Made by a program: the position numbers and the translations under genes | In this document: positions 1,097 through 7,371 of the stretch, in pieces | Layout: the number at the start of each line of letters is the position of its first letter | How positions within the stretch are numbered: the stretch's first letter is position 1 | Virus record (IMG/VR): IMGVR_UViG_2617270998_000003 | Span: 1 to 12,248 of that record | From: a virus | Taxonomy: Duplodnaviria; Heunggongvirae; Uroviricota; Caudoviricetes | Reading direction: 5' to 3' (one strand) | Length of the DNA: 12,248 bases | The notes under the pieces: model-generated | The model's database searches: none | Told to the model about the DNA's origin: nothing | The model's input: the letters and a program-made list of their open reading frames with translations, nothing else

Positions 1097-1128
1097 AATA
1101 CGCCCCATGCAGGGGCGTATTATTTACT
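1097..1128. terminator. Bidirectional intrinsic terminator between the convergent Q and KAP NTPase genes
   Basis: Perfect 10-bp stem AATACGCCCC (1097-1106) / GGGGCGTATT (1112-1121) with 5-nt loop ATGCA; T/A-rich on both sides (TTAATAAAA upstream, TATTTACT downstream). Sits between stop codons at 1091-1093 and 1124-1126. Confidence 0.65.
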
Positions 1129-2455
1129 GAATGAATGACATTTGATTGATATATTTTATCAATAACTCTCTGGGTGTAGTGCTCCAAAAATTTAGGTGGT
1201 CATAATCAGTATAAACTTTGGTGAACCTTTTTAGTTCTTCATCACTTTTAGGAGCAAATCGCTCATTAAGAGTAATACTGTCTTTAATTATTCCAAAGAA
1301 TACAATTGATATTTTAGGGATTTTCGAACTCATCTCATAAGAATAAGGTATCTCTTTTATTTTAAGCAGGTCTGCTAAATAAGATATAGATTCAGCGGTA
1401 ATTTCGTGTTTTAGTTTTTCCTTGTCACCAAAGCAATGTATGAAGACAGCTACGACAAAGATCATATTTATAAAACGATCACTACTGTTGTCTTCATTGT
1501 CGTTTAACAGTTGAAAAATGTTAAGATTGCGTGAAAATGTTTGTGTTTCACGTAATGATAAGTTGGTTCGTTGAATTAAATCACGGATAAAATAACCTGA
1601 TAAGCTATTGATTTCATTTAATGATCTTGTTTTTTCTACAAGGTAATTCCAATATATAACAGAGGCTTTACATACGTCGTGACCATTTATCAAACATGTA
1701 TCTGGAAGCGTGATGGTATATTTTATAAACTTGTCAAGATACTTTTGTGAGTTAATACTATAACCATAAATATGATTTATCGATGCTCTTAATTGTTCTG
1801 TGTTTGTAACTAAAATAAAAAAGACATTATTGATGTCAAAAATGTGTTTTATTGTTTCAATGACATTTGTTGAAAAACTCGGCTTACATCGGTCTAATTC
1901 ATCAATTATAATTACTATCTTTTGATTTTCTGAAATACTTTCGATGCAAGATTTAAGTGAATTTATGTTTTTCTCTGATTCCATATGGTCTTCAAGCAAA
2001 TTTTCAATAGTCCCATCTATTGCTGCATTGCTTGCTTTCTTCATCGCATCTTGGAATTCTTCGGCAACTTCACTAGCCTCCTGTCGTAAAAACCAACCTG
2101 CACCAGCTTTTAGTACAGTTTTTAAACCAAATCGAATTGCAGGAAGAGATCTCTTAATGAAGTGTTGTTTTTCTTCCTCAGGCAAAATGCTGGCAATTGC
2201 AGAGGTTATGAGAAGTAATGGAGATTCTGCATGATCCCCTTTAAAGGCATCAATATAAACAACTTTAGATTCGGGTTCTTGCTCAATAATGAGATTTTTC
2301 AGTTTGATACTAAATTCTGATTTCCCTGTTCCCCATGCGCCATCTATTACCAGTGGTGAAATGTCTGCCTCTGGTTTTAGCAACTTGATGATATTTTCAG
2401 CGATGTTTCTTCGTTGGAACTCGTCACGTTCAGTGAACGATAGTGTATCTAACAT
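1124..2455 (-). CDS. KAP-family P-loop NTPase (PifA-like), 443 aa, in an AT-rich insertion
   Basis: Walker A GAWGTGKS near residue 40; Walker B with the KAP-type hhhhDELDR signature (IVIIIDELDRCKP); no evident transmembrane helices. Only minus-strand gene in the window; about 32% GC versus over 50% in flanking phage genes. Confidence 0.8.
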   Translation of the reverse strand: MLDTLSFTERDEFQRRNIAENIIKLLKPEADISPLVIDGAWGTGKSEFSIKLKNLIIEQEPESKVVYIDAFKGDHAESPLLLITSAIASILPEEEKQHFIKRSLPAIRFGLKTVLKAGAGWFLRQEASEVAEEFQDAMKKASNAAIDGTIENLLEDHMESEKNINSLKSCIESISENQKIVIIIDELDRCKPSFSTNVIETIKHIFDINNVFFILVTNTEQLRASINHIYGYSINSQKYLDKFIKYTITLPDTCLINGHDVCKASVIYWNYLVEKTRSLNEINSLSGYFIRDLIQRTNLSLRETQTFSRNLNIFQLLNDNEDNSSDRFINMIFVVAVFIHCFGDKEKLKHEITAESISYLADLLKIKEIPYSYEMSSKIPKISIVFFGIIKDSITLNERFAPKSDEELKRFTKVYTDYDHLNFWSTTPRELLIKYINQMSFIQ

Positions 2456-2578: not shown

Positions 2579-2610
2579 AAACCCGCCATTGAGCGGGTTT
2601 TGTCTTTTCT
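2579..2610 (+). terminator. Intrinsic terminator (tR'-like) ending a short late-leader transcript
   Basis: 8-bp stem AAACCCGC (2579-2586) / GCGGGTTT (2593-2600), 6-nt loop, then TTTTGTCTTTTCT. Confidence 0.6.
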
Positions 2611-2752: not shown

Positions 2753-3079
2753 ATGCCTCATAACCCAAATACCTGGCTGGAGTTGTTCCAGAGCTGGTGG
2801 CGTGGAGATACGCCTCTTGGCGCAGTGATTATGTCGATTGTTATGGCTGGATTGCGCATTGCCTATTTTGGCGGTGGTGGTGGGGGGAAGCGAAAAACGC
2901 TCGAGATTTTGCTCTGTGGTGCTCTGACGCTGACTTTTGCATCCGCTCTTGAGTATGTCGGATGGCCTAAATCACTTTCTGTTGCCATTGGTGGCGGTGT
3001 TGGGCTGATTGGTGTCGATGCAATTCGTGGGGCTGCAATGAGAGTGATCGGTAACAAGTTTGGTGGCTCTAAGGAGTAA
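2753..3079 (+). CDS. S: Holin, lambda S-like (class I, three predicted TMDs)
   Basis: 108 aa with hydrophobic segments and a charged C-terminus; resembles lambda S in architecture; immediately precedes the endolysin with stop 3077-3079 and the R SD AAGGAG at 3071-3076. Confidence 0.8.
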   Translation: MPHNPNTWLELFQSWWRGDTPLGAVIMSIVMAGLRIAYFGGGGGGKRKTLEILLCGALTLTFASALEYVGWPKSLSVAIGGGVGLIGVDAIRGAAMRVIGNKFGGSKE

Positions 3080-3082
3080 TTT

Positions 3083-3559
3083 ATGCAGATACTAAATTCC
3101 CAGCGTAAAGCTTTCCTGGATATGGTGGCATGGTCAGAAGGAACGGATAACGGGCGACAACCGACACATAATCACGGTTATGACGTTATTGTCGGTGGTG
3201 AACTCTTCACTGATTACTCCGACCACCCTCGCAAACTTGTCACGCTAAACCCAAAACTTAAATCAACGGCTGCTGGACGCTACCAGATTCTTTCCCGATG
3301 GTGGGATGCTTACCGTAAACAGCTTGGTCTGAAAGACTTCTCCCCCAAAAGCCAGGACGCAGTGGCATTGCAGCAGATTAAAGAGCGTGGCGCTTTACCG
3401 ATGATTGATCGCGGTGATATCCGTCAGGCTATCGATCGTTGCAGCAATATCTGGGCTTCACTGCCGGGTGCAGGTTACGGTCAGTATGAACATAAAATCG
3501 GTGACCTGATTGCCCGATTTAAAGAGGCTGGTGGGGGGGGAAATGAAGTTGAGTTATAA
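3083..3559 (+). CDS. R: Endolysin, lambda R-type lytic transglycosylase
   Basis: Near-identity over long stretches to lambda R as I recall it (QRKAFLDMVAWSEGTDNGRQ..., HGYDVIVGGELFTDYSDHPRKLVTLNPKLKST, RYQILSRWWDAYRKQLGLKDFSPKSQDAVALQQIKERGALPMIDRGDIRQAIDRCSNIWASLPGAGYGQ). SD AAGGAG 3071-3076. Confidence 0.95.
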   Translation: MQILNSQRKAFLDMVAWSEGTDNGRQPTHNHGYDVIVGGELFTDYSDHPRKLVTLNPKLKSTAAGRYQILSRWWDAYRKQLGLKDFSPKSQDAVALQQIKERGALPMIDRGDIRQAIDRCSNIWASLPGAGYGQYEHKIGDLIARFKEAGGGGNEVEL

Positions 3560-3977
3560 GCTGATTATCGCTGCTTTTTTCGTTACTGCCATTGGTTCTT
3601 TCATCTGGTCAGCCAGCTACTACTACAGCAAATATCAGTACGAAAAGAAACGTGCTGATGAGGCTGTACAAAATGCTGAATCAGCAACTGCCATTACCAA
3701 TAACGTCCTGCAATCAATGCAAATCGTCAATACAGTTTGGGAGGCTAACCAGCATGCAAAACAGCAGATCGCACTGGAGTCACAGAGAACCCAGGAAGAT
3801 ATCAAAGTGGCTGTTGCGGATGATGATTGTGCTTCACGTCCTGTGCCTGCTGCCGCTGCTGACCGGTTGCGAAAGTACGCGGACAGTTTACGTAACAGTA
3901 CCTCCAATTCCGCTTCCAGCTACTCTGACTTTGGAAACGCCAGTACCGCACATACCAGATACCCTGACCTATGGTGA
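3543..3977 (+). CDS. Rz: i-spanin (Rz-like), N-terminal TMD
   Basis: ATG at 3543 follows the G8 tract (3533-3540) and overlaps the 3' end of R; the track's 3510 start is a TTG inside R. N-terminal hydrophobic helix KLIIAAFFVTAIGSFIW and a charged, helical central region. C-terminal 25 aa are Ser-rich and atypical. Confidence 0.65.
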   Translation: MKLSYKLIIAAFFVTAIGSFIWSASYYYSKYQYEKKRADEAVQNAESATAITNNVLQSMQIVNTVWEANQHAKQQIALESQRTQEDIKVAVADDDCASRPVPAAAADRLRKYADSLRNSTSNSASSYSDFGNASTAHTRYPDLW

Positions 3978-4068
3978 CAGCCTGGAGTTGAATGTGAGTC
4001 TGTTGTCGGCGTTGGAACAGTGTAATTTTGATAAAGCGACAATAAAAAGTATTGATGCTAACAAGTAA
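3820..4068 (+). CDS. Rz1: o-spanin (Rz1-like) lipoprotein, +1 frame relative to Rz
   Basis: ATG at 3820 inside Rz; signal peptide MMIVLHVLCLLPLLTG|C with lipobox LTGC; Pro-rich mature region VPPIPLPATLTLETPVPHIP. Extends 91 nt past the Rz stop. Confidence 0.6.
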   Translation: MMIVLHVLCLLPLLTGCESTRTVYVTVPPIPLPATLTLETPVPHIPDTLTYGDSLELNVSLLSALEQCNFDKATIKSIDANK

Positions 4069-5641: not shown

Positions 5642-7371
5642 GCAGGAAATCTTACCCCAACGTAAATGCTGCCAATCAGTATGCCCGTGATGTCGTGCGC
5701 GGAAAGATTGTGGCCTGCCAGTTTGTGATTCAGGCCTGCCAGCGCCATCTTGATGACCTGATGGCGGAAAAAAGTAAGTCGTTTCGTTACCGCTTCGACA
5801 AGGACCTGGCTGAACGGGCCGCGAAATTTATTCAGCTGTTGCCACACACCAAGGGGGAGTGGGCATTCAAACGGATGCCCATCACGCTGGAGCCGTGGCA
5901 GCTCTTTGTGATCTGCTGCGCGTTTGGCTGGGTCAATAAAGGCTCCCGGCTGCGCCGCTTCCGGGAGGTGTATACCGAAATCCCCCGTAAGAACGGCAAA
6001 TCGGCAATCTCTGCCGGTGTTGCCCTGTATTGTTTTGCCTGTGATAACGAGTTCGGCGCGGAAGTGTATTCCGGTGCCACGACGGAGAAACAGGCATGGG
6101 AAGTCTTTCGTCCGGCACGACTGATGTGTAAACGCACACCCATGCTGACGGAAGCGTTCGGGATTGAGGTTAACGCCTCAAACATGAACCGTCCGGAGGA
6201 TGGTGCGCGGTTTGAACCGCTGATCGGTAACCCCGGTGATGGTTCATCACCCCACTGTGCCGTGGTGGATGAATATCACGAGCACGCCACCGATGCGCTT
6301 TACACCACGATGCTTACCGGGATGGGGGCGCGACGTCAGCCCCTGATGTGGGCTATCACCACCGCCGGGTACAACATTGAGGGGCCGTGCTACGACAAAC
6401 GGCGGGAAGTCATCGAGATGCTCAACGGTTCGGTACCCAACGATGAACTGTTCGGGATCATCTATACCGTTGATGAAGGTGACGACTGGACCGACCCGCA
6501 GGTGCTGGAAAAAGCCAATCCAAATATTGGCGTGTCGGTTTATCGCGAATTTTTGTTAAGTCAGCAACAGCGTGCGAAAAATAACGCCCGTCTGGCAAAC
6601 GTCTTTAAAACAAAGCACCTCAATATCTGGGTGTCGGCGCGTTCGGCGTATTTCAACCTGGTGAGCTGGCAGAGCTGCGAGGATAAATCACTGACCCTTG
6701 AGCAGTTCGAGGGGCAGCCGTGCATTCTGGCCTTTGACCTGGCGCGTAAGCTGGATATGAACAGCATGGCGCGACTTTATACCCGCGAGATTGACGGTAA
6801 AACGCATTACTACAGTGTGGCCCCGCGTTTCTGGGTACCGTATGACACGGTGTACAGCGTCGAGAAAAATGAAGATAGACGGACAGCCGAACGCTTTCAG
6901 AAATGGGTGGAAATGGGCGTCCTGACCGTTACCGATGGTGCAGAGGTGGATTATCGCTACATCCTCGAGGAGGCCAAAGCGGCGAACAAAATCAGCCCGG
7001 TCAGTGAGTCACCCATCGACCCCTTCGGGGCGACCGGGCTGTCACATGACCTTGCTGATGAAGATCTGAATCCCGTCACTATCGTCCAGAACTTCGCCAA
7101 TATGTCCGATCCGATGAAAGAGCTGGAAGCAGCGATTGAATCGGGACGCTTTCATCATGACGGCAATCCCATCATGACCTGGTGTATCGGCAATGTGGTC
7201 GGCAAAAACATGCCAGGTAACGATGATTTAGTGAAGCCCGTCAAGGAGCAGGCGGAAAACAAAATCGATGGTGCGGTTGCACTGATTATGACGATCGGTC
7301 GGGCAATGCTCAAAGAACCTGACGATTTCCTCTCATCTCTTGATCCGGACGATGATCTCTTAATTCTATGA
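5638..7371 (+). CDS. terL: Terminase large subunit (HK97 gp2-like)
   Basis: 577 aa; size, position and acidic nuclease-like motifs consistent with TerL; gene order TerS, TerL, portal. Confidence 0.9.

Follow-up and report, generated by a model that had tools for sequence, protein, structure and literature searches.

The prophage region and its lysis genes

The DNA analysed here, referred to as the window, is a stretch of 12,248 nucleotides that corresponds to the entire contig JNMK01000047.1 of assembly GCA_000700305.1, from E. coli 3-475-03_S4_C1, and its content is that of the late region of a lambdoid prophage. It begins with the genes encoding a DUF968 protein and the antiterminator Q, which are followed, before the holin gene, by a gene on the opposite strand encoding a KAP-family NTPase. 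The lysis genes S, R, Rz and Rz1 come after a tR'-like terminator, and downstream of them lie an ORF, a gene encoding an HNH endonuclease and the genes for TerS, TerL, the portal, the protease and the major capsid protein. The coordinates of the features dealt with in this work are collected in Table 1.

Table 1. Positions in the window of the genes, sites and single-base differences discussed in the text (L147 is the near-identical contig described below)
Feature	Position	Strand	Description
KAP-family P-loop NTPase	1124-2455	-	443 aa; between Q and the holin gene
tR'-like hairpin	2579-2600	+	Followed by a T-rich tail; terminator-like site, 5' of the lysis genes
S	2753-3079	+	Lambda-family class I holin, 108 aa; PF05106
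G6 run	2882-2887	+	Holin codons 44-45 (GGG GGG)
Difference from L147	2885		Window G, L147 T (holin W45G)
R	3083-3559	+	Lambda-type lysozyme (lytic transglycosylase), 158 aa; similarity to PDB 1AM7
G8 run	3533-3540	+	Most of R codons 150-153 (Gly150-Gly153); SD-like leader of Rz
Difference from L147	3540		Window G, L147 T (R V153G)
Overlap of R 3' end and Rz 5' end	3543-3559	+	17 nt; Rz in the +1 frame relative to R
Rz	3543-3977	+	i-Spanin, 144 aa, DUF2570 family; PF10828
Rz1/LysC	3820-4068	+	o-Spanin, putative start ATG 3820; PF23793; lipobox LLTGC, Cys codon 3868-3870
ORF of 163 aa	4131-4622	+	Between Rz1 and the HNH endonuclease gene; GC 40%
Difference from L147	6828		Window T (majority allele in relatives, 53 T vs 11 C), L147 C

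The gene encoding the KAP NTPase has a GC content of 28-38%, against about 50% elsewhere in the window, and in related prophages its place is taken by other cargo, namely a DNA methyltransferase gene or a pair of small hypothetical genes. This position is typical of a moron slot and may be a defence slot. The hairpin found upstream of S (AAACCCGC-CATTGA-GCGGGTTT) occupies the position of the late terminator tR', which is read through under Q antitermination, and in phage SfV a putative rho-independent terminator is annotated at the equivalent place. On the other side of the lysis genes, the product of the 163-aa ORF gave no Pfam match. This slot is highly variable and holds in the relatives genes encoding DUF6979 and KilA-N proteins, a DUF6236 protein, a GrlR-family gene or a hypothetical gene of 555 nt; in one of them (L135) an IS66-family element is inserted just 5' of the homologue of this ORF.

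The product of S matched the Phage_holin_3_1 profile (PF05106) with 84.5 bits, the curated cutoff being 23.8, and its residues 3-102 correspond to positions 5-99 of the 99 positions of the profile, a full-length match that places the protein among the class I holins. No Pfam model matched the product of R, which was recognized by phmmer through its similarity to PDB 1AM7 (E = 1.7e-94, residues 4-157). It keeps the AWSEGT motif, with a Glu at position 19, the putative catalytic residue, and it belongs with the lambda R-type lysozymes, annotated as GH104 or GH24.

Downstream of R, the two genes encoding the spanins were identified. The match of Rz to PF10828 is marginal (27.2 bits, cutoff 26.6); read from the sequence, its N-terminus is hydrophobic (LIIAAFFVTAIGSFIW), and exactly the same protein is encoded on 105 contigs. 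Rz1 matched PF23793 with 57.9 bits (cutoff 27) and extends 91 nt past the stop codon of Rz, an arrangement that is overlapped and not embedded. The pair thus shows the features of a two-component spanin, namely a profile match and an N-terminal membrane anchor for the i-spanin, and for the o-spanin a +1 reading frame and a lipobox cysteine. The public gene call for Rz1 (3907-4068, 53 aa) does not contain the lipobox, which is included in the ORF that starts at ATG 3820. Two forms of the Rz C-terminus were observed, one in proteins of 144 aa (the window and some Salmonella) and another in proteins of 130 aa (SfV and most E. coli); the divergence begins at about residue 117, in the part that overlaps Rz1.

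The start codon of Rz (3543-3545) is placed inside R, which ends at 3559, and the two genes therefore overlap by 17 nt. This ATG, which is also the one used in the annotated relatives, lies 2 nt past a run of eight G that encodes most of the last glycines of R, and the junction reads ...GAGGCTGGTGGGGGGGGAAATGAAG..., the C-terminus of R being ...KEAGGGGNEVEL. The initial annotation had called attention to this run and to a run of six G in the holin gene, and its coordinates and gene assignments (the tail of R, the start of Rz and the loop of the holin) proved correct. The holin loop indeed contains six consecutive glycines (YFGGGGGGKRK, codons GGC GGT GGT GGT GGG GGG), of which the G6 run encodes only the last two. 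The tail of lambda R that had been given for comparison, AGGTVREIDV, agrees with PDB 1AM7 up to residue 157, where the alignment ends.

Although G8 is the sole homopolymer of eight in the window, its presence is within what chance would give, because at least one G8 or C8 was also obtained in 41 of 200 dinucleotide-preserving shuffles of the sequence (mean 0.32). The GGGGGG matches in the window are four, against 4.87 expected.

The same gene order, with 88-92% DNA identity over S-R-Rz, is found in SfV, SfIV, SfII, e14-like prophages and several E. coli phages. The records of the Shigella phages and of these E. coli phages give the four genes as those of a holin, a lysin, an i-spanin and an o-spanin. 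The Shigella phages and the e14-like prophages share with the window the PF05106 holin, the lambda-type R, the DUF2570 Rz, the LysC Rz1, the overlap of 17 nt and the ATG of Rz. They differ from it in having GGGGTGGT or GGGGTAGT at the junction (with an R tail ...GGVVNE...), Trp45 in the holin and the 130-aa C-terminal module of Rz instead of the 144-aa one. Phage lambda has a close homologue of R, and in lambda as in the window the ribosome-binding site of Rz is coded inside R, the start of Rz being placed within R or at its end. The two tails differ, however, being ...AGGTVREIDV in lambda and ...KEAGGGGNEVEL in the window. Lambda has a 4-nt ATGA overlap, an Rz of the PF03245 type and an Rz1 that is fully embedded, whereas in the window the overlap is of 17 nt, Rz belongs to DUF2570 and Rz1 continues beyond the stop codon of Rz. 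The lysis cassette is thus an ordinary and known S-R-Rz-Rz1 module of the SfV/SfIV/SfII type, with nothing new biologically.

Alleles of the R/Rz junction and of the holin loop

We compared 142 homologous junctions, gathered from IMG/VR and metagenomes, from annotated phages and complete E. coli genomes, and from contigs encoding the identical Rz, in the segment between GCTGGT and AAATGAAG. The length of this segment is 8 nt in every one of the 142. The most common allele is GGGGTGGT (103 junctions), followed by GGGGTAGT (24), GGGGGGGT, which we call G7T (11), GGGGAAGT (3) and GGAGTGAT (1); the allele of the window, GGGGGGGG or G8, was found in none of them. Scanning IMG/VR for segments of 5-7 nt and of 9-12 nt returned 0 matches. 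In the metagenomes, where the scan was confined to alleles beginning with G6 and to lengths of 6-11 nt, only the 8-nt GGGGGGGT was found, and among the species representatives of GTDB alleles beginning with G6 gave 0 matches. A second GTDB scan returned one match with a gap of 9 nt, which was discarded as a chance match, since the gene that contains it, on a contig of a Lachnospiraceae MAG, is unrelated.

Given that the segments are of fixed length and that no length variants were found, the runs are to be seen as substitution alleles and not as products of slippage. The idea of slipped-strand mispairing and length variation, put forward in the initial annotation, is therefore not borne out: what has to be explained is a pair of T>G substitutions and not indels. 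The same annotation had named a uniform length in deep read data and identical tracts in all relatives as the outcome that would speak against a mutable tract. Among the relatives the length is indeed uniform, but the uninterrupted tracts are absent from all of them.

None of 5,426 complete genomes of E. coli matched the 90 nt surrounding the run at more than 97.8% identity, and no G8 was found in the matches; at least one of the top matches, FT130, has GGGGTGGT in otherwise identical flanks. The contigs that carry the same cassette and an identical Rz (L135-L137 and L139-L141) present GGGGGGGT between R and Rz and, in the holin gene, GGGTGG.

The GGGGGGGT allele was observed in three flank backgrounds (L079/L145, L113/L126/L144 and L135-L141). 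To judge from these flanks, either the same T was changed to G more than once or the allele was spread by recombination among mosaic prophages. The T>G at position 3537, which gives rise to GGGGGGGT, was also found in many assemblies, one of them on a contig of 4.9 Mb, and from its distribution in these sequences it is certainly genuine.

Position 3540 is another case. The window has G there, and T is present in all 127 relatives that could be aligned at this position. The R protein of the window differs solely by V153G from a protein found on 53 contigs, and was itself found on one contig only, that of the window, with no Logan record. In the holin, position 2885 is G in the window and T in all of the 104 aligned relatives, in which the codon is TGG (Trp45). 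A pattern search of the holin captured 66 relatives, all of them with GGN-TGG (Gly-Trp), and in IMG/VR neither a length variant of the holin nor a G6 allele was found. The S protein of the window differs solely by W45G from a protein present on at least 1000 contigs; the exact protein was likewise found only on the contig of the window, with no Logan record.

A sequence nearly identical to the window is that of L147, the Logan contig ERR14002350_48 (33.3 kb), which comes from an independently sequenced run, ERR14002350, and was found through rare TerS and capsid variants that it has in common with the window. The whole window could be aligned to it and 12,245 of the 12,248 positions are identical (99.976%). 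At one of the three differences, position 6828, the base of the window is the majority allele of the relatives, so that only 2885 and 3540 are private to the window, and these two T>G changes are exactly the ones that build G6 and G8. ERR14002350 is a recent ENA run that looks unrelated to the window contig of 2014; L147 may represent the same strain or collection, resequenced.

In a first-pass spectrum, eight changes (three of them A:T>C:G) appeared to be private to the window. Six of these eight are shared with L147 and are therefore real polymorphisms of the lineage. A mutT-like mutator was set aside, as the window has no further private A:T>C:G change. Of the 36,744 substitutions of one base that are possible in the window, just 24 (0.065%) create a G or C run of at least six by T>G or A>C, and since both private changes fall in this class the process that produced them is not random but specific to G runs. 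Both are nonsynonymous, whereas the other differences of the lineage are mostly synonymous and shared with L147.

With regard to translation, the G-rich segment probably provides the glycine codons of the variable tail of R and, at the same time, the predicted Shine-Dalgarno sequence of Rz. Duplexes with the 3' end of the 16S rRNA were predicted at -8.3 kcal/mol for GGGGTGGT, -11.8 for GGGGGGGT and -11.0 for G8 when a 9-nt anti-Shine-Dalgarno was used, and at -12.2 kcal/mol for GGGGTGGT with one of 13 nt; the relatives with GGGGTGGT would thus have an extended Shine-Dalgarno that is equally good or better. G8 had been described as the only element of this kind 2 nt upstream of the Rz start. 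It is a plausible one, as are all the alleles (-8.3 to -11.8 kcal/mol), but the pairing spans approximately 3530-3540 and exists without G8. An altered strength of the Shine-Dalgarno was rejected as an effect of the change: G7T and G8 differ by less than 1 kcal/mol, and the initiation of Rz is therefore predicted not to be materially changed by T>G at 3540.

Origin of the G runs

On these comparisons, each of the two runs almost certainly goes back to a singleton substitution in an otherwise ordinary cassette, whose relatives do not vary in length at these sites. Because each of them amounts to one T>G that is absent from the other copies, they are most likely errors and at most private point mutations. 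An assembly error, which the initial annotation had mentioned as the simple alternative, is now the leading explanation, the changes at 2885 and 3540 being private with respect to both L147 and the relatives.

We think it likely that the two T>G substitutions are artefacts that arose in base calling or in the consensus of the draft assembly of 2014. The platform used for GCA_000700305.1 was presumably Illumina, as for such drafts of that year. At both sites the base that differs from L147 and from all relatives converts GGT into GGG, GGG[T>G]GG at 2885 and GGGGGGG[T>G]AAA at 3540. This class of change is the best-known systematic error of Illumina sequencing, for which the strongest motif is a GGT that is read as GGG (Meacham et al. 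2011, PMC3295828), and it speaks against real mutation. As in such errors, the T>G comes directly after at least two G on the same strand and is unique to one draft assembly. The resemblance is not complete, as these errors usually occur in individual reads and rarely survive into a consensus.

In nature the segment is interrupted and of fixed length, GGGGTGGT being its commonest form and GGGGGGGT that of the nearest relatives. If the changes are artefacts, the junction of the window would probably also read GGGGGGGT and the holin gene GGGTGG, and there would be neither a special element nor a tract of variable length.

It is also conceivable, if rather unlikely, that the two changes are real private mutations of the prophage of this isolate, in which case V153G in R and W45G in the holin would probably have little or no effect. 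Such mutations could possibly arise by primer slippage and realignment (transient misalignment) at the G runs, or as A:T>C:G changes via oxidised dGTP. Two consensus errors within 660 bp are many for a finished consensus, and strand-specific miscalls are normally outvoted by reads of the opposite strand. The T>G at 3537, genuine and present in three flank backgrounds, with its G7T R protein on the 53 contigs mentioned above, also favours real mutation, since it means that run filling in vivo, or its spread by recombination, does occur in this octamer. Moreover, the tail of R varies among the homologues (VV, TV, KV and TI), so V153G could be tolerated; a lambda lysozyme chain of 154 residues in the PDB (3D3D) suggests that the extreme tail is dispensable for folding, and a prophage gene is under selection only when the phage is induced. 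Against this, the sole private changes in 12.2 kb both fall in the rare class of substitutions described above and both alter the protein. Trp45 is invariant in the aligned relatives and in the holin found on at least 1000 contigs, and among about 15 billion proteins neither variant protein comes from any other assembly. Taking this together, it is best not to count G8 and G6 among the real features of this phage; at most they are private point variants that look neutral.

The initial suggestion that a change of 1 nt could modulate lysis corresponds to a contingency (phase-variable) tract, in which slipped-strand mispairing at G7 or G8 would switch the expression of the lysis genes. We consider this very improbable. 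G8 is the most slippage-prone site of the window, and on translation both frame outcomes give open and interpretable products: the loss of one G would fuse R to Rz in a protein of 297 aa, and the gain of one would cut R to 154 aa, its TGA stop codon sharing bases with the ATG of Rz and recreating an ATGA stop-start overlap of the kind that lambda has at its R/Rz junction. Nevertheless, the constant 8 nt of the junctions and the empty IMG/VR scans leave no length polymorphism, the uninterrupted tract is not conserved (the nearest relatives and L147 have G7T), and G8 is present only in this one record, where it is probably an error.

Poly-G contingency loci occur in Neisseria, Haemophilus and Campylobacter. 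The window resembles them in having 7-8 G in or next to a coding sequence, where a gain or loss of one base alters the frame, and differs from them in the constant length in relatives, in the lack of conservation of the run and in that no on/off products were found. E. coli is proficient in mismatch repair and is not known for poly-G phase variation in lysis genes.

A search with the 297-aa product as query found no fusion of R with a DUF2570 Rz among the cluster representatives of a protein collection of 5.8 billion clusters. The top matches (best query coverage 85%) were artefact-looking fusions of lambda-type R and Rz, which are irrelevant to this junction. Many proteins in the set (P0048-P0167) are lambda-type R-Rz (PF03245) or S-R fusions of 180-320 aa, encoded on contigs of about 3.5 kb from ENA and in assemblies of eukaryotes (Sphenostylis stenocarpa, Diplocarpon, Fusarium and Anthostomella). 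They have the look of lambda DNA, from controls or contamination, that bears indel errors and has found its way into the public protein sets.

We also considered the octamer as a hot spot of T>G run filling in vivo, going from GGGGTGGT through GGGGGGGT to GGGGGGGG and building an emerging contingency switch of lysis timing in E. coli prophages; this seems highly doubtful. If it were true, variants with one G more or less would toggle R between its normal form, a truncated form coupled to Rz through ATGA and a fusion with Rz that is tethered to the membrane. Finally, a programmed ribosomal frameshift at the run (for instance at G_GGG_GGA), leading to a second R isoform or to an R-Rz fusion, can practically be dismissed: G GGG GGA formally matches X XXY YYZ and the +1 frame is open into Rz, but the common alleles GGGGTGGT and GGGGTAGT have no slippery heptamer, so the site is not conserved, the -1 product would merely be an R shorter by 4 residues, and a downstream stimulatory structure is not evident.

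Significance

The RefSeq/UniRef entries WP_032236693.1 (R) and WP_032236692.1 (holin) probably owe their existence to two base calls. Homopolymeric "contingency tracts" that are taken from single draft assemblies need to be checked against near-identical genomes. The biological significance is small, as the type of cassette is well known and artefact is the most likely origin of the runs. Real changes would exemplify run-filling substitutions that make a mutable tract, of no evident function, at the junction of two overlapping genes.
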